From positions 14,178-78,177 of the forward strand of contig JAZRTB010000032.1 in the NCBI GenBank assembly GCA_045651805.1: a DNA stretch of 64,000 nt. Reading direction: 5' to 3'. The notes below the pieces were generated by a model. It saw only the letters and a program-made list of their open reading frames with translations. It had not been told where the DNA came from and ran no database searches. How positions within the stretch are numbered: position 1 is the stretch's first letter; each line of letters opens with the position of its first letter. The DNA comes from Clostridia bacterium (lineage in GTDB: Bacteria > Bacillota > Clostridia > UMGS1883). The translations under genes were made by a program, and so were the position numbers. Positions 26,899 to 39,546 of the stretch are shown here, in pieces.

Positions 26899-27183
26899 AT
26901 ATACATAGTGTTGGGCGTTGCGGAGATTTTCCGGGCGCCCTTCCTCGTAATACAGAAATATAAATACTTCGCTTGGGGAATGAAAACAAATTTGACATCT
27001 TTTTTGACATCTACTATATTAAAAAAGCGTAATTATATATAAAAGCAGGTAACAAAGAAAACTCTATTATATTGGGGATTGTACAGAATTTGGAACTTAA
27101 TGAACTTCACGTTTTTACAGCTTTTAATCAAGTTGTCAACGAAGTCTTTTCGGAATTAATATATTAATCAGGGTGGTTAGAGT

Positions 27184-28131
27184 ATGAGTAAAGGATACGA
27201 AAAAGCAAAAAATATATATCAATCTGCTTCAGAAGAAAGCAGAAGTGAAAATAAAGATTGGGATTCATACTTTGACGAACTAGAAGATAGTGACTTCAAG
27301 CAATTTTACATAAACAATTCTAAGGAAAAAAGTTATCTTCGAAAAAAAGTTGATGGTAAAGATTTAAAAAGTTTTGCATCAAGAAAATTTTTATTAGTAG
27401 ATATTTGGAAATGTTTATATATAGAAGCATATTTGAAAAATTTTGGCGTAAAAAGAGAAGTTTTCGAGAGTGAAGTGCTGAAATATGGAAACAAAAAAAG
27501 TTCTAAAAGAATTTCTGAAAAAAGTGATGAATACAAATTAAACAAGTATGCATTAAAATATATCAAGGACTCCATTGATTCTATTACTGACGAAGGTGAA
27601 AAAATTTTCCCTGAATTTGAAAGTTTTAAAAGAGTAAAACTAAAAGATCTGACTGCCATTTTCGAATACGCCTTCGACGATCCTGATATAATGGAAAAAT
27701 TAAAGAAGGGCAGACATTGTAATTTTGATCCGGTTGAAGCGATGCTTATATTTTTTATTTTGGATGATAAATACAAGAAAGAAATTAAGCATATACGATA
27801 TAATGAGGGTCATCTGGTAAAACGAAGATATATGAACGGTCTTAAAAGATATGCAACTGCAATTGATAATAAGAGAAATTTATCACATGGGAGTATTGAA
27901 AACAACATAACTGACATTTATGAAAAAAGGGTAGAAGTATTGGAATCTGATTTACCTACAATTCATAATCTGATTGAGGATGCCATAGCCGAGTATAAAA
28001 AAGGTGATATTGAAAAAGTTATAGAAATATCAAAAAAATGCATAAAGAAATTAAAGAAATTTATTAAAAGAAATGAAAAATCAACACAAAGCACTATCCA
28101 AAACGTTGATCAAACAAAACTAAACAATTAA
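27184..28131 (+). CDS. Hypothetical Lys-rich protein (315 aa), island-encoded
   Basis: RBS GGGTGG upstream. AT-rich codon usage typical of the island. No recognised domain. Followed by its own terminator. Confidence 0.55.
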   Translation: MSKGYEKAKNIYQSASEESRSENKDWDSYFDELEDSDFKQFYINNSKEKSYLRKKVDGKDLKSFASRKFLLVDIWKCLYIEAYLKNFGVKREVFESEVLKYGNKKSSKRISEKSDEYKLNKYALKYIKDSIDSITDEGEKIFPEFESFKRVKLKDLTAIFEYAFDDPDIMEKLKKGRHCNFDPVEAMLIFFILDDKYKKEIKHIRYNEGHLVKRRYMNGLKRYATAIDNKRNLSHGSIENNITDIYEKRVEVLESDLPTIHNLIEDAIAEYKKGDIEKVIEISKKCIKKLKKFIKRNEKSTQSTIQNVDQTKLNN

Positions 28132-28149
28132 AAGAAAACTTTCTCATGG

Positions 28150-28190
28150 AACAGCTACAAACTGCGGTTTGTAGCTGTTTATTCGTTTTG
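28150..28190 (+). terminator. Rho-independent terminator (AACAGCTACAAA-CTGCGG-TTTGTAGCTGTT + T-rich tail)
   Basis: 12-bp stem followed by TATTCGTTTT, immediately after the stop of 27184..28131. Confidence 0.6.
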
Positions 28191-28373
28191 GACGAAAATA
28201 TGTCGTCTGCCGTATTTGTATACTTTAAAGTTTGTGTTTGTTGTTAGATAATAACATTTCTTGGTGAATAAAAAATTTTGAATCTTCACTAGTTTTAAAA
28301 AAATATGATTGGTATAATCAGAGATGTCCTGGCCGGGAAAAGTATTTATTAAATGAAAGGAGATTGTAAAGAT

Positions 28374-28895
28374 ATGATTCTTACTGAAAATACTATTAAA
28401 GAGGAACATATCTCTTGCAACGATGAGAACTTATCATTGCAAGAAAGGGAATTCTATAATATGGAATTCACCGAAGAAATCTACAATGCTGCATTAGAAC
28501 ACATGGATACAGCACTCAGATATTTGCGTTCTGCAGAAATGTACTTAATGGAAGATGATAATCTTGCGGCATTAGGGTATTTGAAATATGGTATGATACA
28601 TACCGCAAGAGCCTTGCTGAAGCTATATGACCCGGAAGACAAGAGTATTGATGTTATGAACCGTTTTGACAGAACATATGTAAAAACAGGTATTGTCTAT
28701 TCCGATAATTTCTTTTATTGGTATGACCTGGGTTTTTTATTAAAAGTTTTAGCATTTGATGCATGCTTTGAAGTTTCCGAGGATCAGGTTATCGAAGCTT
28801 TGGAATATGCGGATGCATTTTTCGAAGATGTAGACTATATCTTGTCGGAGTGCGCAGTGTGTGTAGAAGATGAACAGGAGGAATATGTATTATGA
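28374..28895 (+). CDS. HEPN-like helical domain protein (copy 1; lacks the conserved His found in copy 2)
   Basis: Segment AALEHMDTALRYLRSAEMYL...AALGYLKYGMIHTARALLKLYDPEDKSIDVMNRFDRTYVKTG follows the Pfam HEPN (PF05168-type) pattern A..YYAMFHAARALL...K.H.G.I..F. ATG at 28374 chosen after AAAGGAG; the ORF-track start is 28353. Confidence 0.55.
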   Translation: MILTENTIKEEHISCNDENLSLQEREFYNMEFTEEIYNAALEHMDTALRYLRSAEMYLMEDDNLAALGYLKYGMIHTARALLKLYDPEDKSIDVMNRFDRTYVKTGIVYSDNFFYWYDLGFLLKVLAFDACFEVSEDQVIEALEYADAFFEDVDYILSECAVCVEDEQEEYVL

Positions 28896-29524
28896 GTAAT
28901 GTGCATTATAATGCGAATGGGTCTGACTATATGTCAGACCCAAGAAATCAAAATGTAGTCGGCAAGAGTATTTGTGCCGAAGGAAGAGAGTCAGTTGCAA
29001 AGGCAACCGCGGGAGAAAGTACATTTTATAATGAAACTTTACCTCTGGATATTGTCAATCAATTTTGTGGGGTGAAGTTTTCCGAACAACAATATGCTTC
29101 TGCAAAATGCAGAATAGATATCGCAAAATCACATTTATATTCTGCAAAGAAGCACTTTAAAAAAAGAGACTATATCGCTATGCAGAGTTATATGCATTGC
29201 TCAATGAATCATGCATTAAGAGCGTTGCTGGAACTCAAGGAAGAATGTGATGAAAAACACATTGATATTATGTCGACCTTTGAAAGAAAGTATATCCATA
29301 CTAAACTTTTTAGTGAAAACAACTTCCTTTTTTGGCAAAAGATATCTTATGTGTTTGAAAAAATAGTTCGTGGGGATTTTTTCAGTTGGCCAAGAGAGCG
29401 TTTTAATGAGGCATTGACTAGAGTATCCATATTTTTAGAAGATGCTGAAGAAGTCTTATCATATTACTATATGTGTACTGATAAGGAAACTGAAAAATCA
29501 ACAGGGGGAAATGATTATGAGTAA
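28892..29524 (+). CDS. HEPN-like helical domain protein (copy 2; retains the conserved His, ...MNHALRALLELKEECDEKHIDIMSTFERKY...)
   Basis: Paralogous to 28374..28895 over the HEPN-like core. Start overlaps the upstream stop (ATGA), indicating translational coupling. Confidence 0.55.
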   Translation: MSNVHYNANGSDYMSDPRNQNVVGKSICAEGRESVAKATAGESTFYNETLPLDIVNQFCGVKFSEQQYASAKCRIDIAKSHLYSAKKHFKKRDYIAMQSYMHCSMNHALRALLELKEECDEKHIDIMSTFERKYIHTKLFSENNFLFWQKISYVFEKIVRGDFFSWPRERFNEALTRVSIFLEDAEEVLSYYYMCTDKETEKSTGGNDYE

Positions 29525-29903
29525 ATTTGAATTTATGAATTATACTGAACAGTCTTCGGTGGAAAACGCCGATGAAAAGGAACTACAGGGTGGTTCTCCA
29601 AACTTTATGGAAGATGTGTTTTGTCAAAGCAAAAAGGTCAAAAAGCTCTTTAAAAAGGACAAAAAGACTAAAAAAGCTCTTTCTAAACAAGGCAAGCAAA
29701 TAAAGAAAGTAGCTTCTTTTGGCAAAGAGATTGGCAAAAAAGTAGAAGTTATCAGTGAAGAGGTAAAAGACGTTAAGCGAGATGTCGCTAAATTCAAAAA
29801 GACAACGCGTGACAGTCTTTTTAAAGAACTCGTTTACTGCGAGGATGCCTCTGAAAGAAAACGTCTAATCGCGGAAATTCAGAGCACAGAGGTGACTATA
29901 TGA
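29517..29903 (+). CDS. Small Lys-rich protein (129 aa) with N-terminal double-glycine-leader-like segment (MSKFEFMNYTEQSSVENADEKELQGG)
   Basis: ATG at 29517 is preceded by AGGGGG at ~8 nt. It overlaps the upstream gene by 8 nt and the downstream gene by 4 nt. The core is extremely Lys-rich (KKVKKLFKKDKKTKKALSKQGKQIKK). Confidence 0.5.
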   Translation: MSKFEFMNYTEQSSVENADEKELQGGSPNFMEDVFCQSKKVKKLFKKDKKTKKALSKQGKQIKKVASFGKEIGKKVEVISEEVKDVKRDVAKFKKTTRDSLFKELVYCEDASERKRLIAEIQSTEVTI

Positions 29904-31576
29904 GTACTGAACTACTATATCGTTCGGACACCACGGGGGGGACAACCCTCCGTGGTGAAAGTGAGACAACTATAGCTAATTTTTATCCTGTGGTGAAAAA
30001 AGTGGCTAAGTATAAGTGCGGAGATAAAGTGCAAAAGAAATATGTAGTGGAGTTCTATGACCCATACTATATAGGAAAAGTTGAAATTGATTCAAAAAGC
30101 TTGGAAAAATTTGATTACTCCAGTGTGGATGATGCTTTGCAATTAAACCCTACTATATCTACTGCCGGAAAAGAAATGGCATATTATATAAGAGACCAGG
30201 CCAAAAGCGTAGAGGTAGAGGAAAAACTCCTGTTAGACACTCTAGGGTGGCATAATTGTAGTGATAATCATGTCTATTGCGCAGGTAACATGGTAATAGG
30301 AGAAATTTCTCAGAAAGACTATGTTATATCAGATTGTTTATCCAAATATCGTCTTGATATTGATGTAACTCTCAGCGAAAAAGACGCTGCAGTTCATACG
30401 ATGAAACTGATGGATATAGCTCCCGGTAGCAGTTGTTTGGTTTTTGCTTCAGGTCTGCTGGGGCCATTACGACAAATTATCCTTGATGCCGGTTTACGAC
30501 CGCCATGTATTCCTTATGTAGAAGGAGAATCTCAATGTAAAAAGACAACGCTTGTTAAACTATGTACGATTATGTACAATAGAAGTGAACTGCAGAACGA
30601 CAGCGATATAGCCTGCAAGAGAGTAAGTAGTTCAGAGTTCAAACTTGAAGAAATTATATCAGAGCTTAAAGATACCACTTTTTTGCTTGATGATCTTTTC
30701 AAGGCAGACAACAAGATGAAGAAAATTTATGAAGGTCGTATCGAAAATGCAATCAGGAATTTTGCTGATAACTCTACAAGATCAACCGCCAGAAGTGCAT
30801 TTAAGAACAATTCAAATATTATCATTACAGCAGAATATCTGATAGAAAGTAAAACTGATGTTGGGAGGCTTTTCTTGATATGTATCGGACAAGATGATGT
30901 AGATGTTGATAAACTCTCTGAATGTCAGAAAAATCCACTCGCACTTTCTACTTTTTATTGTTATTTCATAAGGCATTTATCACTGCATTATGATGCAATT
31001 GTAGAGCGACTTAAAAAGGAATATTCTGCTTTCAGGTGCTCAGCATATGACCATGAAAGTAAATTCGGGAGATTATATGAACAGTTCTTTCTTATTGATT
31101 TTGCGTTTTCGTTATATCTGGAGTATGCAGTAAGTGTTGGACTAAATATAAATAAGGAGCTTGTTAAAAATAATTTCCAAAACTATGTACGGCAAGCCTT
31201 GAAGAAGCAGAATGGAATACTCATTTCTCTCGATAGGAAAGAAGTGAAATCTGTAAATTTCTCGAAAGAACTTGTTACTATGATTAGTGATGGTTCTGTA
31301 ACCTTGTTAAAAAAAGGTTCAGAATGTTTTGAGAAGGGTGGATTTATCTATATAACCACCAGGTACTTTAATTCAAAGCTACGAGAAAAATACGAAAGAG
31401 ATTTTTCCGCGAGAAGCATTACTTCGTATTTCAGAGACCGGTACATATCAGAGGTAGACGCAGATAACCGTCAAAAGAAATATAAAGGGAGACGCTACCT
31501 TAAATTAAATAAAAAAGAATTAATGAAAGACGCCTATGATACCGGTTATGAAATCAATAATCTGTTTTATAACTAA
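29900..31576 (+). CDS. Hypothetical protein (558 aa), last gene of the tandem HEPN operon
   Basis: Long ORF with island-type composition. ATGA overlap with the upstream gene. No Walker A or other recognised motif seen. Confidence 0.6.
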   Translation: MSTELLYRSDTTGGTTLRGESETTIANFYPVVKKVAKYKCGDKVQKKYVVEFYDPYYIGKVEIDSKSLEKFDYSSVDDALQLNPTISTAGKEMAYYIRDQAKSVEVEEKLLLDTLGWHNCSDNHVYCAGNMVIGEISQKDYVISDCLSKYRLDIDVTLSEKDAAVHTMKLMDIAPGSSCLVFASGLLGPLRQIILDAGLRPPCIPYVEGESQCKKTTLVKLCTIMYNRSELQNDSDIACKRVSSSEFKLEEIISELKDTTFLLDDLFKADNKMKKIYEGRIENAIRNFADNSTRSTARSAFKNNSNIIITAEYLIESKTDVGRLFLICIGQDDVDVDKLSECQKNPLALSTFYCYFIRHLSLHYDAIVERLKKEYSAFRCSAYDHESKFGRLYEQFFLIDFAFSLYLEYAVSVGLNINKELVKNNFQNYVRQALKKQNGILISLDRKEVKSVNFSKELVTMISDGSVTLLKKGSECFEKGGFIYITTRYFNSKLREKYERDFSARSITSYFRDRYISEVDADNRQKKYKGRRYLKLNKKELMKDAYDTGYEINNLFYN

Positions 31577-31589
31577 AACGGATTATCTC

Positions 31590-31660
31590 CCTCTATAATT
31601 TTACCGTAGGGGGAATGTATCCCCCTATGGTAAAATTATAGAGGGATAATAAGACAACAA
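31590..31660. terminator. Very long near-perfect hairpin (~30-bp stem: TTATCTCCCTCTATAATTTTACCGTAGGGGG / CCCCCTATGGTAAAATTATAGAGGGATAA) after the 558-aa gene; probable terminator/insulator or recombination site
   Basis: Inverted repeat read directly from the sequence. Arms are separated by ~8 nt (AATGTATC). No strong U-tract. Confidence 0.4.
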
Positions 31661-31751: not shown

Positions 31752-31940
31752 ATGAATAAACAGCAAATGAAATTGACTAAATTCTGTGAAGAATTCGATG
31801 TCCCGCGTAGTACAGCACTCAAATGGGTGCACTCTCAGGGATTCCCGGCATATAACCTTTGTGGACACTGGTACATCGATTTGCCGGAATATTATAGGTG
31901 GAGAGAGAATCAACACCATATATCGTATAAATATGCTTAA
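31752..31940 (+). CDS. xis: Excisionase/AlpA-like helix-turn-helix DNA-binding protein (Xis)
   Basis: 62 aa. LTKFCEEFDVPRSTALKWVHSQGFPAYNLCGHWYIDLPEYYRW matches MerR-like/excisionase HTH proteins (..SRSTIYRWV..G.FPA.K.GG.WR...E...W). Sits immediately upstream of the integrase. Confidence 0.6.
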   Translation: MNKQQMKLTKFCEEFDVPRSTALKWVHSQGFPAYNLCGHWYIDLPEYYRWRENQHHISYKYA

Positions 31941-32012: not shown

Positions 32013-33128
32013 TTGAAAAAAAGAGCAGACGGAAGATATTGTAAGCAGATATTTATTGGCTATAAGCCTGATGGTACAAGAAGAATGAAGACCATTTACG
32101 GAAAAACTATCAGAGAAGTAGAGAAGAAAGAATCCGAAATCAAGGGGCAGATGGAGCAGGGAATAAATGTGTCTGAAAACCTGACAGTGGCAGAGTGGGC
32201 AGACATCTGGCTTAAAACATTTAAGACGGATATCGCCAACAACACCTATGTGAGATATGCAGGCATAGTCAGGAATCAGATTATTCCGCTGCTTGGCAAT
32301 GTCTTGATTCCGAATATAAGACTTAATATGTTGCAAAAACTGATAAATGATATGGCGGAGAAATATGCTCCGGCAACAGTTAAGAAAACAAAGGATGTTC
32401 TGCATCAAATGTTTCAGCAAGCGGTAAGGTCACAATATATCGCCGTAAATCCTGCTGAAAGCATAGTGACACCTAAATTTCATCAGAATGACAGAGAGCC
32501 ACTTTCAACAGAGCATGTAAGAAATATAGAAGAGTTCTGTAGGAACTATAAACACGGAGCGTTTGTAATGGCATTACTATATACCGGAGTCAGAAGGGGA
32601 GAACTACTTGCATTGCAGGTTAAGGATGTGGACTTTGAGAACGGTTATATAACCATTAATAAGTCGGTTGAGTTTTTATGTAACTCTCCCAACCTGAAAA
32701 CTCCGAAAACTCCGAAAAGCAACCGCTTGATACCGATACTCAAACCATTGATTCCATATCTGCAAAGGGCTGTTGACGGCAAAGAAAGCACAGACTTTAT
32801 ATTTACCGGGTACGACGGAAATCTACACACAAAGTCAGCGGTTCAAAGGTTGTTTAAAGCTTTTAACAGAGATTATAACCGCTACATAAACAGATTCAGA
32901 ACAGAGGATGAGTACGAAAGCGTTCATTTTACGATGCATCAGTTCAGACACACCTTTTGTACGATGATGTATGATGCAGGAGTTGATGTGAAAACGGCGC
33001 AGGAAATATTAGGACATAGTAGTATTAATGTAACTCTTGATATATATACGCATCTCAGTCAATACAAAAAGAAAATCAATATTGATAAGATGAACGCATA
33101 TATTGAAAGCCAATTCAAACCAGAATAA
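32013..33128 (+). CDS. int: Site-specific tyrosine recombinase (phage integrase family)
   Basis: TTG start 7 nt after AAAGGAGA. The C-terminal catalytic region HQFRHTFCTMMYDAGVDVKTAQEILGHSSINVTLDIYTHL carries the R..H..R..Y signature of tyrosine integrases. An N-terminal SAM-like/core-binding region is present. Confidence 0.85.
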   Translation: MKKRADGRYCKQIFIGYKPDGTRRMKTIYGKTIREVEKKESEIKGQMEQGINVSENLTVAEWADIWLKTFKTDIANNTYVRYAGIVRNQIIPLLGNVLIPNIRLNMLQKLINDMAEKYAPATVKKTKDVLHQMFQQAVRSQYIAVNPAESIVTPKFHQNDREPLSTEHVRNIEEFCRNYKHGAFVMALLYTGVRRGELLALQVKDVDFENGYITINKSVEFLCNSPNLKTPKTPKSNRLIPILKPLIPYLQRAVDGKESTDFIFTGYDGNLHTKSAVQRLFKAFNRDYNRYINRFRTEDEYESVHFTMHQFRHTFCTMMYDAGVDVKTAQEILGHSSINVTLDIYTHLSQYKKKINIDKMNAYIESQFKPE

Positions 33129-33130
33129 AG

Positions 33131-33170
33131 CACAGTGAATTTCTTTATGATTCACTGTGCTTTATTTTTC
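33131..33170 (+). terminator. Rho-independent terminator after int (AAGCACAGTGAAT-TTCTTTATG-ATTCACTGTGCTT + TATTTTT)
   Basis: 13-bp stem plus U-tract. Its 3' half is the left copy of the 29-nt direct repeat. Confidence 0.7.
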
Positions 33171-33219: not shown

Positions 33220-33251
33220 ATAGATGTTATCAAATGATAGGTGGCGGTAAA

Positions 33252-34097
33252 ATGAAAAGCTTAATTAAAAATATACGAATCTCTGCTAATATGAGTCAGG
33301 AGCAATTTGCTGATTGTATCGGAACTACCGTGCTTTCTGTTAACAGATGGGAAAACGGTAAAACTGAACCTAATAAAATGGCTCAAAAGCAACTATACCA
33401 ATTTTGTAAGGATAATAATATTGATTTAGCAAAAATTATTGTAGAATCAAAAGAATATGAAAATATTGAGAATAAGCTGGTTTTATATCATGGCTCTAAA
33501 AAAGGTATAAATGGGGATATTGCACCCATTAGTCGTGGAGAGTGCGATTTTGGTAAGGGGTTCTATATGGGAACAAGTACTTTGCAACCCCTTACTTTGG
33601 TGTGTGCAGAAGAAAAACCTAAATTTTATACTGTTGAACTGGATTTGACGGGTCTTAAAGTTCTCAATGTTGAAATCGGTCTTGAATGGGCACTCTTGAT
33701 AGCATATTACCGCAAGGAAATGGAGTCTGCCATAGGTACGGAAATCTATGAAAAGTATGCTAATTTTGCAAGTGGTTATGATGTTATAGTAGGTTATATT
33801 GCAAATGATCGTATGTATACTGAATTATCTCGTTTCTTCAATAAAACTTTAACTGACACGGCATTAATACATTGCTTATCTGCACTTGATCTTGGCAAGC
33901 AGTATGTTGCAATTACAGAAAAAGCGTGTAGGCAAATCAAAGTCCTGAAAGAAGAAAGTTTATCTCAGCTTGAACTTGCAATTCTTCGTGATATGAGTGT
34001 AGAACGCAGAAAAGAAGGAATAGCTCTTGCTGATGAAATTGAAGTGAAATATCGCCGTGAAGGAAAGTTTTTTGATGAGATTCTGGGAGGAAAATGA
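33252..34097 (+). CDS. XRE-family HTH fused to a DUF3990-like domain
   Basis: The N-terminus (IRISANMSQEQFADCIGTTVLSVNRWENGKTEPN) is a Cro/C1-type HTH. The C-terminal part has the LYHGS...DFGKGFY motif that I recall as characteristic of DUF3990. ATG at 33252; the ORF-track start is 33234. Confidence 0.55.
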   Translation: MKSLIKNIRISANMSQEQFADCIGTTVLSVNRWENGKTEPNKMAQKQLYQFCKDNNIDLAKIIVESKEYENIENKLVLYHGSKKGINGDIAPISRGECDFGKGFYMGTSTLQPLTLVCAEEKPKFYTVELDLTGLKVLNVEIGLEWALLIAYYRKEMESAIGTEIYEKYANFASGYDVIVGYIANDRMYTELSRFFNKTLTDTALIHCLSALDLGKQYVAITEKACRQIKVLKEESLSQLELAILRDMSVERRKEGIALADEIEVKYRREGKFFDEILGGK

Positions 34098-34519
34098 TTA
34101 TGAATAAATCCTTACTATTAACTCTTTGTGATACTCAAGGTAAATTATTTGAGTTGTCAGGAAAGCGTGGCTATGACAGCGAAGCCTTTATTAAGACGTT
34201 TATGACTACTGATATTTCAAAGGATATGGACAAGGAGTTTCACCATGTCCAGTGGGCAGGGAAGGAATATATTATGTCTCGTATGGAAGATGAGAATTCT
34301 GATGCTATAATCGGTAACGGAATTGTTTACGATAACGAAACATTGTACTGGATAGGTTATATCTATAGATACTGGAATATATACACGGGAGAATCAAGCA
34401 AAGACATTTACAAGCAAGCACCGGTAAAGACTATGCAAACTGTTTATTTAATGTATCATACCATGAGCCCTGAACTTGCAATAGACAGACTAAAAGAGTC
34501 TTACAAAGATAGCAAGTGA
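34094..34519 (+). CDS. Small hypothetical protein (141 aa), translationally coupled partner of the XRE/DUF3990-like gene (possibly DUF3791-like)
   Basis: ATGA overlap with the upstream stop. No recognised motif. A partner role is inferred only from the common DUF3990/DUF3791 gene-pair arrangement. Confidence 0.45.
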   Translation: MIMNKSLLLTLCDTQGKLFELSGKRGYDSEAFIKTFMTTDISKDMDKEFHHVQWAGKEYIMSRMEDENSDAIIGNGIVYDNETLYWIGYIYRYWNIYTGESSKDIYKQAPVKTMQTVYLMYHTMSPELAIDRLKESYKDSK

Positions 34520-34591
34520 TTTGGATTTCATTTGTTCGGCGCATATCAAATTTTGATAATAATGTATTTTATAACAAAAGGTGACAATATA

Positions 34592-35824
34592 ATGAGAACT
34601 ACGAATTTAAAAATGCCAGAGGGATATATATCGATGCTTTCAAATTTAGCCGCTATAACTTCCCAACACGGAGAACTTGTTAAATTTAATGATGAAAGTT
34701 ATCGTAGATTGGTAGACAATCTTTCGAGCAAATTAATAAAGAATAGCGTAATAAATGATATTGTACAAAAACAATCAAGGATGTTACAGTCGTTTAATTA
34801 CTCGCTATATTCCGGTAATATTGGCATTCAAGCATTAACATCGCAATGGAATACTATGGCTCGAATAGCAGAATCGTTCCAAACGCCTGAAATCAAGATG
34901 TTGAAGGATTCTTTAATACGAAATGAAATTTCAGCAGTTAGCACGTTTGTTGACTCTATAAAAGGCATGCGTATAGAAGCGGCCAATATTGCATTTTTGA
35001 AAATGGCACCAATTTTTGAGAGTGTATCACTCCCTAAAGGAATGAAAAGTGTCATTAAAGATATTCATGTAGATACTGCAAGACGATTATCTACAGCTAA
35101 AAACATTAGTTTTGATAGTGATAAAAAATTATTCTACGTCGAATATCAACCGAAAGACACAGCAACAGTTTCTGAAACAAATATTCTTTGTTCGTCATTG
35201 CATCTTCTGTCAGATATAGATGAAGCAGATTTAATTTCGTTTATGAATTACTTGGGAAATCACCTTCCCTTTGCTAGCACTCATCGTACCGGAAAAAGAA
35301 TAAATGAAATAATATCAAAGTGGAATGAATTTTCTGATTTTGATTGTGATTATTACTACCATGCTCGGGCTCTTCCAGAGGGCAAGGAACCTTATACAGA
35401 GCAAGAACTTCGTCAAGCTCCATATGGGTTAACCTGGCAAGGACGCTATAATTACACGGGTGAAAGTCACTATTACTTTTCAAATGTGCCCAAAGGTGCT
35501 CTTATGGAGGTCGCAAAACACACAAAGGAAAAAAGAGTCCAAATTGCGAAATTAAGACCGACAAGAAGCATACGTATGATAGATTTGTCACAAGAAATTA
35601 CAACACAGAATAAATTCTTAGAATACTGTAGATTGAAACCTCAACCAGGAGATTATCCAAATATTAAAAGAGAGTATTTGCTACCCTGTTATGTTGCCAA
35701 TTGTTGTGAACTAAATGGCATAGAAGGAATAAAGTATCATGGTAGCAAAGAATATAAGAATTATGTTTCTTGGGAAGATACATATTTTGATTTTGTGGAT
35801 TCGGAAATACAAAATAACATATAA
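34592..35824 (+). CDS. RES-domain protein (NAD+-targeting toxin-like) with ~290-aa N-terminal extension
   Basis: The C-terminal ~140 aa match the RES-domain signature: WQGRYNYTGESHYYFSNVPKGALMEVAKH (cf. GGRWN..G.PvlYlS.sp.tAllEvl.H), then MIDLSQE, then CCELNGIEGIKYHGSKEYKNYVSW (cf. G.DGi.yPS....N.vlf). ATG at 34592 after AAAGGTGA; the ORF-track start is 34532. Confidence 0.6.
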   Translation: MRTTNLKMPEGYISMLSNLAAITSQHGELVKFNDESYRRLVDNLSSKLIKNSVINDIVQKQSRMLQSFNYSLYSGNIGIQALTSQWNTMARIAESFQTPEIKMLKDSLIRNEISAVSTFVDSIKGMRIEAANIAFLKMAPIFESVSLPKGMKSVIKDIHVDTARRLSTAKNISFDSDKKLFYVEYQPKDTATVSETNILCSSLHLLSDIDEADLISFMNYLGNHLPFASTHRTGKRINEIISKWNEFSDFDCDYYYHARALPEGKEPYTEQELRQAPYGLTWQGRYNYTGESHYYFSNVPKGALMEVAKHTKEKRVQIAKLRPTRSIRMIDLSQEITTQNKFLEYCRLKPQPGDYPNIKREYLLPCYVANCCELNGIEGIKYHGSKEYKNYVSWEDTYFDFVDSEIQNNI

Positions 35825-35857
35825 CAAAATAGAGCTTCTTTGGATTGGAGAGATATT

Positions 35858-37537
35858 GTGAAATTTGAGAGGATTACAATAAAGAATTTTAGAAACTTTG
35901 AAGATATTACACTTGATTTATCAAATAAAAATATTTTCTTTGGATTAAATGATGTGGGAAAAACTAATTTCTTATATGCAATGAGGTATTTGTTCGATAA
36001 GGATGTTCGAAAACACAATCTTATTGATTCAGATTTTCATAATAAACAATTAGATCTGCCAATCGAAATAGTCGTGACATTAGATATTAGTGACACAGAC
36101 AATGTTGATTGTAAAAAGTTGCGTGCAAGATTAAAAGGAGCACTGCGTAGCGAACATACAAAAGTATATATTAAGTTATTAGCTCAATATAATAAAGGCG
36201 AATTGATTGCTATGCCAATTTTGTTTTGGGGTGGCGATATGGGACATCTTCAAGAAATGAAACAAAGAGGATATTTATACGAAATTGATTATGTGTTTAA
36301 TGTGATTTATATTGACTCGTATGTCGATTTGCATTTGTTGTTTAAAAAGAATGTTGGACAGCTTGTGAAGAATGAAAAAGAAGAAGATAAAGAAGTGCTG
36401 AACAATATTCAGTTAAATGTAAATGAATTGAATAAAAACATTTCTTCATTATCAGGAATTAAAGAGTTTGAAGAAAAGATTACCCCTGAGTATAAAAAGT
36501 TTAGGAATGAAGGGATTTCTGTAACTGTAAAGTCTGAAATAGCGGTAAAAGGACTATATTCTAATATCGTACCATATATAAAACAAGATAATGATGATAA
36601 CTTATATCCAACTGCCGGAGAAGGAAGAAAGAAATTACTAGCATATTCCATTTTTGATATTCTTTCAGATGAGTCAACTGAAAAGAAAATCAATTTATTT
36701 CTTATAGAAGAACCTGAAAATCATTTACATAAATCTATGCAAATAGCGTTATCTCAAATTCTTTTTTCTAACGATAAATACTCATATCTTTTTGTTACAA
36801 CTCATTCTCCGTTTGTTCTTTATGAAATGGACAATGTTAATTTGGTGCGTATTTATAGTGAACGACATATTGATAGCAAGAGTGTGTTTTACACTGTTCC
36901 TTCTGAGTTTGAGAAAAACAAAAAGATGTTAAACCAACAATTATCAGAAGCAATATTTGCTGACAGAGTTTTACTGGTAGAAGGTCCATCCGAAAAAATG
37001 TTATTTTGTAAAGTTTTATATGTTATCAATCCATTTTATGAAGTTGAAGGCGTATATGTTCTGCCAGTAGATGGTATAGGCTTTAGAAAATATATTGACA
37101 TATTAGATGATTTGAACATTCACAATATAATTAAAACCGATAATGATTTGCGTGCGGTTAAAAAAGGTGGACCATATAGTACATTAGGTTTTTCACGATG
37201 CAATAACTATATTGGTGAAGATATCCTACCAACAGATCAAATAGCTGAAAAAACAATAAAATCAAAAAGAGATTTATATGAAGCTAATAAGGAAACTCTC
37301 AATTCTATTCGCAAGGAGTATTCGATATATTTATCAAAAGTGGATTTAGAAAACGACTTAGATGAATGTATGCATGAAAGATTGGTGTCTTTGTTAGGTG
37401 TTGATGATCCGGTAGACCATTTGCAAGATTCAAAACATTACAATATGGTTGAATTAATAGGAAAGTTAAGCGATGAAGATTGTAGAAACATTTACAATCA
37501 TTACAATTTTGCATGTTTGAAGGAGGTTGTTGAATGA
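35858..37537 (+). CDS. gajA: Gabija GajA: OLD-family ATP-dependent endonuclease (ABC-type ATPase + Toprim)
   Basis: N-terminus ERITIKNFRNFEDITLDL...FFGLNDVGKTNFLYAMRYLFDK has a Walker A motif. The C-terminal Toprim-like region has LLVEGPSEKMLF...IIKTDNDL...SKVDLENDL...NMVELIGKLSDEDCRNIYNHYNFACLKE, close to my recollection of Bacillus GajA. GTG 35858 chosen after GGAG; the ORF-track TTG is at 35840. Confidence 0.8.
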   Translation: MKFERITIKNFRNFEDITLDLSNKNIFFGLNDVGKTNFLYAMRYLFDKDVRKHNLIDSDFHNKQLDLPIEIVVTLDISDTDNVDCKKLRARLKGALRSEHTKVYIKLLAQYNKGELIAMPILFWGGDMGHLQEMKQRGYLYEIDYVFNVIYIDSYVDLHLLFKKNVGQLVKNEKEEDKEVLNNIQLNVNELNKNISSLSGIKEFEEKITPEYKKFRNEGISVTVKSEIAVKGLYSNIVPYIKQDNDDNLYPTAGEGRKKLLAYSIFDILSDESTEKKINLFLIEEPENHLHKSMQIALSQILFSNDKYSYLFVTTHSPFVLYEMDNVNLVRIYSERHIDSKSVFYTVPSEFEKNKKMLNQQLSEAIFADRVLLVEGPSEKMLFCKVLYVINPFYEVEGVYVLPVDGIGFRKYIDILDDLNIHNIIKTDNDLRAVKKGGPYSTLGFSRCNNYIGEDILPTDQIAEKTIKSKRDLYEANKETLNSIRKEYSIYLSKVDLENDLDECMHERLVSLLGVDDPVDHLQDSKHYNMVELIGKLSDEDCRNIYNHYNFACLKEVVE

Positions 37538-39036
37538 ATCTATCTCCAGTTCAAGAGAAAATAGTTAGTACGCAAGGTAATTTAATTGTAAGAGCAAGCG
37601 CAGGTACCGGTAAGACACACACAATGGTTAATAAGATTGCTAAAGAAACTACCGACAATCGCTCACACAAGGTTGTTGCAGCCATTACTTTTACAATAAA
37701 AGCAGCTCAAGAAATTAAAGAACGTTTGGTTATTGATACTAATCAGCATTTTATCGGAACTAATAATAGCTTTGCAATAGAAGAAATTATAAAACCATTC
37801 ATGAAGGACGTATATGGCGAAGAATATAATATTGATATGGGTACAGATTATGCATTAAAAGTAAATACATATCAAGAAGGATTAGATAAGATAAAAAATG
37901 AACATACTCTTTGCTCATATCAAAACACTAAAGAGAATTTTATATTTGAATTAGCTTACAATATAGTATTAAAATCCAGAGCTTGTCAATTGTATCTTAA
38001 GGCAAAGTATTTCAAAATATATATAGATGAATATCAGGATTGCGACAGAACTATGCATGATTTTTTCATGTATCTATGTGATGAACTAAAAATAGACACT
38101 TTTGTTGTTGGTGATGAAAAGCAATCCATTTATATTTGGAGAGGAGCTTATCCAGAAGCATTCAAAAGTATTTGGGAAAAAGAAAATTTTGAGAAAATAT
38201 TTATGGGAGATAACTTTCGCTCTTCGCAACAAATTCAAAATTATTCTAATCTTTTATGCGAAGAAACAAGGGAACTATATAAAGCAACAGAAACCGCAGA
38301 TAATATAATATGGATATCTCCTGATAGAGTGAATTATGCAAATGAAATATTGTCATACATTGATCCTAATAAAAGTTCAGCATTGTTAAGGTTTTCAAAT
38401 GATAATGCAAAAAAATGTGCCGAAGCATTAACATCTGCTGGTTTAGAATATATTTATATACCTCAAACACCTATTGCCGATATTTCAACTGAAACAGCGT
38501 GGTTATATACATCAATAGCAAAATATATAATCTTAACAAAATATTCGGTTTACGACTTGATTTCGGAAATACCTGTTGAAGGCGATGAGAGTATTAAAGC
38601 AGTATCAAAAATAGATGGACTGCTCATTAAGTGCAATGAAAATTCGAAGAATGAAATGCTTTTTAAGGATAGTGTAAATAAATTGGCGAAGCATCTTGGA
38701 TACGAAACAAGAGACGAAGATCTGAAAAAATTATATCAGACTATTTCGGATGAGAAATACTATCCCGCTTATGATACGGAAAGCTATAAACATATATCAA
38801 TTACTTTTCATTCTTCAAAAGGGCTAGAATTTGAACAGATCATTGTTTTTGCGGAAGATTATCGGTTATCAGATATGCCAAGTATATATAACCACTATGT
38901 TGCAGTAACTAGAGCAAAAAGCAAACTAATAATAGTAAAATCAACTGATTACAATGCAAATTGTTTTCAAGTCAACCTGCAAAAAATATTTAAACAAAGT
39001 TCTGTTGAATTGATCGATATTATCACATTTAGATGA
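37534..39036 (+). CDS. gajB: Gabija GajB: UvrD/PcrA-like superfamily-1 helicase
   Basis: 500 aa. Walker A VRASAGTGKTHTMVNKIA. Has a DExQD-like motif (IYIDEYQDCD) and later UvrD-type motifs (VVGDEKQSIY, TFHSSKGLEFEQIIV, AVTRAKSKL). 4-nt overlap with gajA. Confidence 0.8.
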   Translation: MNLSPVQEKIVSTQGNLIVRASAGTGKTHTMVNKIAKETTDNRSHKVVAAITFTIKAAQEIKERLVIDTNQHFIGTNNSFAIEEIIKPFMKDVYGEEYNIDMGTDYALKVNTYQEGLDKIKNEHTLCSYQNTKENFIFELAYNIVLKSRACQLYLKAKYFKIYIDEYQDCDRTMHDFFMYLCDELKIDTFVVGDEKQSIYIWRGAYPEAFKSIWEKENFEKIFMGDNFRSSQQIQNYSNLLCEETRELYKATETADNIIWISPDRVNYANEILSYIDPNKSSALLRFSNDNAKKCAEALTSAGLEYIYIPQTPIADISTETAWLYTSIAKYIILTKYSVYDLISEIPVEGDESIKAVSKIDGLLIKCNENSKNEMLFKDSVNKLAKHLGYETRDEDLKKLYQTISDEKYYPAYDTESYKHISITFHSSKGLEFEQIIVFAEDYRLSDMPSIYNHYVAVTRAKSKLIIVKSTDYNANCFQVNLQKIFKQSSVELIDIITFR

Positions 39037-39037
39037 C

Positions 39038-39071
39038 AAAAAAGAAGCTTTTCTTGTAAAGCTTCTTTTTT
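39038..39071 (+). terminator. Rho-independent terminator after gajB (AAAAGAAGCTTT-TCTTGT-AAAGCTTCTTTTTT)
   Basis: 12-bp stem plus U-tract directly after the stop at 39034..39036. Confidence 0.7.
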
Positions 39072-39216
39072 GAAATTCTTTATAATTCATTGTGCTTTAT
39101 TTTTTGTCATAGGAGAAAGGATGCACCTATTTATGTCTGTAATGTATAGTAACAGTCAGACAAATGTTAGTCAAATGTTAGTCAAAATGGTTAAAATCAC
39201 TATATGGAAGAAAATG

Positions 39217-39254
39217 TAAAAACGGCTCAACCCTATTGGTTAAGCCGTTTTCTG
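39217..39254 (-). terminator. Rho-independent terminator of tRNA-Glu (minus strand): GAAAACGGCTTAACC-AATAGG-GTTGAGCCGTTTTT
   Basis: Inverted repeat AAAACGGCTCAACC/GGTTAAGCCGTTTT on the plus strand. On the minus strand it lies just 3' of the tRNA and ends in a U-run. Confidence 0.55.
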
Positions 39255-39255
39255 A

Positions 39256-39331
39256 TGGTGACCCCACGGGGAATCGAACCCCGGTCTTCGCCGTGAGAGG
39301 GCGACGTCCTAGGCCGCTAGACTATGGGGCC
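39256..39331 (-). tRNA. tRNA-Glu (anticodon CUC)
   Basis: The reverse complement reads GGCCCCATAGTCTAGCGGCCTAGGACGTCGCCCTCTCACGGCGAAGACCGGGGTTCGATTCCCCGTGGGGTCACCA. It has a 7-bp acceptor stem, a GGGG-TTCGATT-CCCC T-arm, an anticodon loop CTCTCAC and an encoded CCA. Collinear with Bacillus tRNA-Glu. Confidence 0.85.
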
Positions 39332-39546
39332 ATTTCGATCACTTGCTTATTATAATACGAAAAGCATAAGTTGTCAATAATTTTTTTCGTAAAATGAAAA
39401 AAATCTGCCACTTTCCTTGACTAAATGCGGATTTTGGTGTAAATTATATATTGGTATGTTGTGAAAATTCCGACGAGTCGGAATTGAAGTTTAAAAAGCT
39501 GTTTTATAACGAAAAAATGATATACATACAGAAAGGATGATACGAA

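Follow-up and report, generated by a model that had tools for sequence, protein, structure and literature searches.

A probable DNA-replication module with HEPN-fold genes in a staphylococcal cassette-like integrative element of a Clostridia bacterium

The window analyzed here, a stretch of 64,000 nucleotides from a Clostridia bacterium (GTDB lineage UMGS1883; assembly GCA_045651805.1, contig JAZRTB010000032.1, positions 14,178 to 78,177), contains at its positions 28374 to 31576 four overlapping genes, which encode two HEPN-fold proteins (H1 and H2), a small Lys-rich protein (K), and a protein of 558 aa. A preliminary description of the sequence had proposed that these genes form a novel defense or toxin-antitoxin (TA) system built on HEPN RNases. 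Our results do not support this proposal, given the helicase identity of the 558-aa protein, the lack of co-conservation of the four genes, the residues lost from H1 and H2, and the outcome of a PADLOC search. Instead, they make it probable that these genes constitute the DNA-replication module of a ~12-kb integrative mobile element that resembles the staphylococcal cassette chromosome (SCC) and the pathogenicity islands of Staphylococcus aureus (SaPIs), and not an anti-phage system of the HEPN type. The locus is probably an SCC/SaPI-like replicative island with a Cch-type helicase that is recognizable by structure and divergent in sequence, and the degenerate HEPN-fold accessory genes are its unusual feature.

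The identification of the 558-aa protein (29900..31576, + strand) is central to this reading. No significant match to it was found in Pfam, NCBIfam, PHROGs, or PADLOC, and its family comprises 33 clusters, none of which carries a Pfam annotation. The family alignment contains a P-loop of the form G-x-S-Q-x-[RK]-K-T (Walker A; the canonical GKSGxGKT appears in distant members), a Walker B motif, LDDL, and invariant Arg residues. Specifically, K215 (Walker A), D264 (Walker B), and R323 are invariant across 27 homologs, T216 and D265 are nearly invariant, and the NTPase motifs are intact in the window protein. An AlphaFold2 model of the protein, which is confident (pLDDT 87.3, pTM 0.78), predicts an N-terminal beta-rich domain, an AAA+ core, a helical domain, and a C-terminal winged-helix-like domain, i.e., the succession of N-terminal domain, AAA+ core, and C-terminal winged helix that defines the Cch/SaPIbov1-Rep fold. 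When this model was searched with Foldseek, the best matches, which were far ahead of the others and spanned the full length, were replication helicases of mobile genetic elements (5dgk, E = 6e-17, template modeling score 0.53-0.57; 8tch, E = 3e-12). Cch itself belongs to the DUF927 proteins and is a relative of SaPIbov1 Rep (PMC7581432); among the 27 family members, one matched DUF927 weakly (E = 3.4e-4) and two matched Pox_D5 weakly. Altogether, structure and genomic context, as opposed to membership in a sequence family, indicate that the 558-aa protein is most likely a Cch/SaPIbov1-Rep-like replicative helicase of a mobile element, with helicase activity predicted from the model. It had previously been listed as a protein of unknown function with no recognizable domain, and its identification as an ordinary replication protein is of the kind that the preliminary description had itself named as speaking against a defense system.

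The helicase gene is the last of four open reading frames (ORFs), all on the + strand, whose junctions overlap by 4, 8, and 4 nt. H1 (28374..28895) is 173 aa long, or 180 aa from an alternative ATG at 28353, and a AAAGGAGA ribosome-binding site lies upstream of its ATG at 28374. Both H2 (28892..29524; 210 aa) and the helicase gene begin at ATGA overlaps, with H1 and K, respectively. We placed the start of K at 29517 (MSKF..., as in its relatives), which gives a protein of 128 aa (29517..29903) and the 8-nt overlap with the H2 stop. Our inspection of starts, overlaps, and flanking signals agrees with the ORFs and overlapping junctions described before, including the small Lys-rich gene, the product of which is best taken as 128 rather than 129 aa. 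Ahead of H1 lie a terminator-like hairpin (28149..28180, + strand; a 14-bp stem followed by a T-rich tail), which closes the gene of a 315-aa protein, and a promoter-like extended -10 element, TGGTATAAT (28310..28318, + strand), as read from the sequence. With this hairpin and this putative -10 element in front of H1, the four genes appear to form a single transcription unit.

We compared the window with 31 related loci from metagenomes and GTDB genomes, all of them from Clostridia (Oscillospiraceae, Lachnospiraceae, Hungateiclostridiaceae, and Anaerotruncus). A Tyr integrase or large Ser recombinase gene is located 3' of the helicase gene, on the same strand and at a distance of ~0.2-2.5 kb, in at least 27 of the 31 loci; two of the loci without a downstream recombinase are short contigs. 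In addition, a small ORF (~40-200 aa) abuts or overlaps the helicase start in ~24 of the 31. The comparison thus recovers the organization of SCC/SaPI-like islands, i.e., a helicase operon directly upstream of a recombinase gene and a small gene coupled to the helicase. The HEPN-like genes are restricted to the sub-clade nearest the window, which comprises five distinct elements (the window, L004-6, L007, L034/35, and L036/37). In all five, the gene order is H-K-helicase-xis-int with overlapping junctions, such that wherever an H gene occurs, its synteny with K and the helicase is strict and it is translationally coupled to them. Two H genes are present in the window only, and each HEPN-bearing relative has one; a partial ORF upstream of the L036 H gene was considered as a second copy and rejected, as it is not H-like. 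One further locus, L032, carries a homolog of the 315-aa protein (70% identity), K, the helicase, and int without any H gene, and many other elements have K and the helicase alone. Because of these elements, H is, judging by gene content, an optional accessory of the element backbone, the conserved core of which is formed by the helicase together with its small partner and the recombinase. The four genes, whose joint conservation had been put forward as a test of the defense proposal, are not co-conserved, since relatives carry one H gene or none.

The small partner can be followed across many of these loci. K is 76-83% identical in L004 and L007, and its C-terminal ~40 aa are conserved (LKADI..KK..ELV..D...ERKRL). 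The same motif is found in small genes directly 5' of the helicase in L002, L008, L009, L010, L011, L012, L013, and L032, as well as in a 42-aa ORF of L001, and partners of the K family can be recognized in at least 13 loci. No significant match to K was found in Pfam, NCBIfam, or PHROGs, PADLOC gave a weak match only (E = 0.02), and a profile search against the PDB returned coiled coils only. We infer that K is a dedicated small partner of the helicase.

H1 is a paralog of H2 (29% identity over 146 aa, E = 3e-22), and both have the four-helix up-down fold of the HEPN superfamily (PF05168 type). H2, the N-terminal ~50 aa of which are disordered, passes the PF05168 gathering score marginally (23.1 versus 22 bits); H1 is below the Pfam HEPN threshold, and its sole Pfam match is a sub-threshold DUF357. 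When 1.8 billion representative proteins were searched with an H-clade profile, only six close relatives were found at E < 1e-10 and, beyond these, stand-alone proteins of ~136 aa. Against a profile of 34 such stand-alone relatives, H2 reaches 67.8 bits and H1 43.6 bits over the full domain (positions 3-132 of 138), a test that is not fully independent, as the 34 sequences were themselves picked by the H-clade profile. Pfam HEPN is matched by 35 of the 40 sequences in an alignment of these 34 relatives with six H-clade sequences (alignment A4). The four-helix fold, the marginal Pfam score of H2, and the relative-profile scores bear out the HEPN assignment that had been made for both small ORFs. 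H1 has its nearest relative in L007, which carries one HEPN-like gene only (39% identity), and H2 is nearest to the L004 gene (67% identity); the pair thus seems to unite two diverged lineages rather than to stem from a recent duplication.

We then considered the residues expected in the active site, comparing six H-clade members (H1, H2, P0042-P0044, and P0046) with the 34 canonical stand-alone relatives. In the canonical set, the Arg of 'NRSYY' is present in 31 of 34 sequences, the Arg of 'RALLAL' in 29, the His of 'KKHSG' in 33, and the R-x4-D-Y motif positions in 31-32. This polar constellation fits the published account of the subfamily that includes 2hsb, in which an Asp replaces the motif His and a conserved His is found elsewhere (Anantharaman et al., PMC3710099). 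Among the H-clade members, the NRSYY Arg is replaced by Tyr in six of six, the R-x4-D-Y Arg by Phe, Leu, or Val in six of six, and the Asp of the latter motif by Val, Ala, or Glu. The 'RALL' Arg is kept in four members, and the alternative His position reads H/S/Y/S/H/I across the six (kept in two). Specifically, H1 has Y, S, and L..AF at the family R, H, and R-x4-DY positions, and H2 keeps only one Arg and one His of the family polar set. Neither motif of a competent HEPN RNase (Rx4-6H, or R-x4-D plus the alternative His; PMC3710099) is found in the clade, and on these alignments the whole H clade looks catalytically degenerate.

The preliminary description had noticed that a His follows 'RALL' in the second HEPN copy and not in the first, and had likened the pair to a composite or inhibited RNase. 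The observation is correct (His in H2, Ser in H1), and the interpretation is not sustained: because both family Arg are replaced in all six members and the H2 His is Tyr in the orthologs P0036, P0039, and P0042, the His contrast does not mark an active/inactive pair. Ile occupies this position in the gene of L007, the nearest relative of H1.

The mechanism that we propose begins with excision of the element by Xis and Int, which would yield a circular form. The 558-aa protein would then act as an MCM-like, self-loading initiator-helicase of the Cch/SaPIbov1-Rep type, which probably recognizes a double palindrome downstream of its gene via its C-terminal winged-helix-like domain and would subsequently assemble as a hexamer and unwind the circular element for replication. 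K, which is translationally coupled and takes the place that LP1413 or MP has in SCC, probably binds nucleic acid or aids helicase assembly. H1 and H2 would most likely be lineage-specific, non-catalytic adaptors or regulators that bind nucleic acid, nucleotide, or protein, and not RNase effectors.

The double palindrome (31588..31646), a candidate origin or helicase-binding site, is located directly 3' of the helicase stop. It is composed of four TCCCYCTA half-sites in alternating orientation with AT-rich spacers; its arms of 27 nt are 96% complementary, and no T-run comes afterwards. L007 and L004 keep this architecture, and L001 (6475-6545), L008 (3046-3115), L010, L011, and L012 show the same architecture after the helicase stop with TTCCACCA half-sites. 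The arms thus differ between two helicase clades, as would be expected if each clade had its own binding sites. Because the origins of SaPIs and of SCC Cch2 are situated immediately 3' of the helicase gene (PMC9371898, PMC7581432), we propose that the palindrome is the replication origin. The case is made by the conserved architecture and not by repeat statistics: 7-mer repeats 3' of the helicases in the L001/L008/L010/L011/L012 clade are individually weak (17-43 of 200 shuffles reached the observed count), and a 7-mer scan of the window downstream of the helicase found no 7-mer family.

Several points weigh against the replication-module reading. The sequence identity of the 558-aa protein to Cch is only 12-13%, the protein does not match Pfam DUF927 (PF06048) at E <= 1, and the helicase-family profile found no relative, neither Cch nor Rep, among PDB sequences. 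No primase or polymerase is recognizable in the element, and neither an attachment (att) core nor the exact left end was found. Instead of an origin, the palindrome could represent an element of transcription, such as a hairpin. The H genes are strictly linked to the K-helicase operon in five distinct elements and are therefore under selection for some function, and motif-less HEPN proteins have been reported to be toxic (PMC3710099), which is a caveat to the view of the clade as degenerate. Lastly, the authors of PMC10061031 have raised the possibility that SCC-like helicase operons might themselves belong to uncharacterized defense systems.

The HEPN fold, which is normally that of a toxin RNase, may have been recruited as an integral, non-catalytic subunit of a Cch-type helicase initiation complex, where it would form a hetero-pair in the window and possibly couple replication of the island to the sensing of RNA or nucleotide. 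Alternatively, H1 and H2 could be a motif-less toxin/inhibitor module that ties element replication to host killing or counter-defense. Both options are compatible with the strict synteny and coupling of the H genes, and we assign a low probability to them together. An addiction (TA-like) module, in which one HEPN protein, toxic through a non-canonical site and neutralized by the other copy or by K, would stabilize the excised, replicating element, seems unlikely to us. The canonical relatives are stand-alone Pfam HEPNs of the kind described as MNT-HEPN toxins (PMC3710099, PMC7641770), toxicity has been reported for motif-less HEPNs (PMC3710099), and the tight translational coupling fits stoichiometric control. 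However, no MNT or other known antitoxin is among the family matches, relatives have just one H gene, the conserved set of polar residues is lost, and K is kept in elements without H and is therefore no H-specific antitoxin. It is very unlikely, in our judgment, that H1 and H2 are anti-defense decoys, i.e., dead HEPN subunits that would heterodimerize with host HEPN toxins or titrate regulators and thereby protect the replicating element. In favor of a decoy, the active-site residues of the HEPN fold are degenerate, the genes lie on a mobile element and are expressed alongside those for its replication, and two divergent copies could target two host systems; but the idea is purely inferential, no interaction partner has been identified, and the strictly kept order with K and the helicase points to a function within the replication module and not to a free-standing anti-defense gene. 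Addiction and decoy roles are possible for H1 and H2, and nothing positive supports either.

The account that we consider least probable is the novel HEPN abortive-infection or defense system, in which H2 would be the RNase, H1 its inactive or inhibitory partner, and the 558-aa protein an ATPase sensor or motor. The best structural matches of the 558-aa protein are replication helicases of mobile elements, and the helicase is linked to recombinases, and not to defense genes, in at least 27 of the 31 loci. The H gene is absent from most elements and never present in two copies in relatives, the family Arg is lost in both H1 and H2, and the His is unconserved in orthologs. Furthermore, the PADLOC search that had been recommended as a check returned no match for H1, H2, or the 558-aa protein and nothing significant for K (E = 0.02), while the nearby GajA and GajB genes were matched at E < 1e-190.

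The replication-module reading is best judged against known systems. SCC and SCC-like elements carry a small-protein gene together with Cch, recombinase genes just 3', and the origin directly 3' of the helicase (PMC7581432, PMC9371898, PMC10061031, PMC12540322), and three-part helicase operons of SCC-like elements are described as widespread and sporadic in mobile elements of Bacillota (PMC7581432, PMC10061031). With SCCmec 'pattern 1' of Staphylococcus (LP1413 and Cch, then ccrAB), the present operon shares a small gene abutting the helicase (PMC7581432, PMC12540322) and recombinase genes just 3' on the same strand; related elements (L002, L004, L033, and L034) also contain DUF960, an ORF conserved in the SCC ccr locus. 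In contrast to SCCmec, the window helicase has only the low identity and no DUF927 Pfam match mentioned above, the element uses Xis, a tyrosine integrase, and a tRNA-Glu site (other family members use large serine recombinases), one or two HEPN-fold genes head the operon, and the host belongs to Clostridia. K is Lys-rich and coiled-coil-like, and among solved structures only coiled coils resemble it in sequence, with no direct comparison made to the SCCmec partner LP1413.

The CcPol-MP-Cch2 and Pol-SSB-helicase operons share with the window the order of upstream protein, small protein, and helicase, followed by one or more recombinases (PMC7581432, PMC10061031), and in L033 a member of the 315-aa family is found beside a D5_N/DUF5906 helicase in the same layout. 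However, the slot 5' of the small protein is occupied here by the HEPN fold instead of an A-family polymerase, the helicase is Cch-like and not of the COG3378/D5_N type, and there are no grounds to propose that HEPN plus K would act as a primase. Compared with the SaPIbov1 Rep (Rep2-type) module, no upstream primase, Stl-type repressor, or packaging genes are recognized here. A tblastn search of phage records with the helicase gave no match, and an IMG/VR scan gave one distant locus only; with a single viral-contig match and none in phage records, a satellite lifestyle is therefore not indicated. A megablast search of the element against plasmids also found no match, and an ordinary plasmid or phage origin was rejected on the basis of these searches.

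As for the HEPN-fold proteins, stand-alone PF05168 HEPNs (e.g., AF0298, PDB 2hsb) are described as the HEPN partner of MNT-HEPN modules. The H clade differs from them by an N-terminal extension of ~40-65 aa, by the lack of an MNT partner, and by the replacement of the family Arg and R-x4-D-Y residues. The neighbors of H1 and H2 are the 315-aa protein, K, and the helicase, and no NTP_transf_2 or other nucleotidyltransferase match was found in the neighboring genes, as opposed to a type VII MNT-HEPN (HepT/MntA) TA system, in which a minimal nucleotidyltransferase gene adjoins HEPN, usually on its 5' side.

The assignment removes a false lead, in that the supposed HEPN defense system is the backbone of a mobile element, and the true defense genes (Gabija and others) are its cargo. 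In addition, replicative islands of the SCC/SaPI type would now include members in gut-type Clostridia. Pfam, NCBIfam, and PHROGs do not detect the helicase family, which is recognizable by structure only, and its description could aid the annotation of defense-island carriers in anaerobes. An unusual feature of these elements is that HEPN proteins with degenerate catalytic residues are strictly coupled to a replication helicase.

The integrated element extends roughly from position 27111 to the tRNA-Glu at 39256 (~12 kb), and its G+C content is lower than that of the flanks. Homology with L032 begins at 27111, upstream of which the flanks differ. The first gene of the element, placed there by this homology, encodes the 315-aa protein (27184..28131, + strand) and is a separate transcription unit; no family match to its product was found in Pfam, NCBIfam, PHROGs, or PADLOC. 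Homologs are present 5' of a small gene, helicase, and recombinase in both L032 (2941-3882; Cch-like helicase) and L033 (8001-9116; D5_N/DUF5906 helicase), and the family may supply a replication or regulatory function common to these elements and could be a cryptic primase. An unannotated 'family X' of ~370-390 aa is also encoded 5' of K and the helicase in L004 (5615-6736), L008 (34-873), and L012 (5326-6489). Membership of the 315-aa protein in family X was rejected (hhalign probability 0.1 against the L004, L008, and L012 proteins). A trio of DUF960, Amidoligase_2, and GATase_6 genes recurs in L002 (3060-5386), L004 (1474-3843), L033 (4504-6848), and L034 (2211-4572).

Downstream of the helicase and the palindrome, the element encodes an excisionase-like helix-turn-helix (HTH) protein of 62 aa (31752..31940, + strand; Pfam HTH_17 and PHROG 66 excisionase, both sub-threshold), which is 92% identical to the product of the gene at the equivalent position in L007, and a tyrosine integrase of 371 aa (32013..33128, + strand; Pfam Phage_integrase, E = 1e-28, and Phage_int_SAM_3), which is 76% identical to the L007 integrase. 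A tRNA-Glu(CTC) gene predicted by ARAGORN (39256..39331, - strand), the 3' end of which faces the element, is the probable integration target. In L007, the integrase gene directly adjoins tRNA-Glu, and in L009 and L014 a tRNA-Lys adjoins int. When the left end was compared with the tRNA-Glu region, no direct repeat was found, only a 10-nt inverted match compatible with chance.

The segment between the integrase and the tRNA contains defense cargo (33234..39036, + strand). An overlapping pair of HTH-DUF3990 and DUF3791-like genes (33234-34519) matches the PADLOC candidate system PDC-M42A/B and also the M13 and M10 models. The following 430-aa protein (34532-35824) is RES-like at a sub-threshold Pfam score (21.3 bits versus a cut-off of 23.2) and has no PADLOC match; it may be a stand-alone RES-like toxin. 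A complete Gabija system with overlapping genes comes next (35840-39036; GajA, 565 aa, E = 4.7e-239; GajB, 500 aa, E = 1.4e-191; PADLOC). The earlier view of a defense island beside Xis/Int is right in that defense genes lie next door; these genes are cargo of the same element and not partners of the operon. A 34-nt direct repeat brackets this cargo, with a left copy (33136..33169, + strand) that overlaps the integrase terminator hairpin and a right copy (39071..39104, + strand) that is 91% identical to it; a search for a third copy found none. Since the L007 integrase runs directly into the tRNA-Glu region (equivalent to window 39166-39387) without the 5.9-kb segment, the bracketed cargo seems to have been inserted at this point or to be an exchangeable cassette.

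Between the right 34-nt repeat and tRNA-Glu (window 39130-39200), there are short tandem repeats, namely two copies of TTAGTCAAA[A]TG, and CAGTCAGAC. Repeats of the GTCAGTCA type are found at the equivalent place in L007, and the short tandem repeats before tRNA-Glu may be arm-type sites of the integrase.

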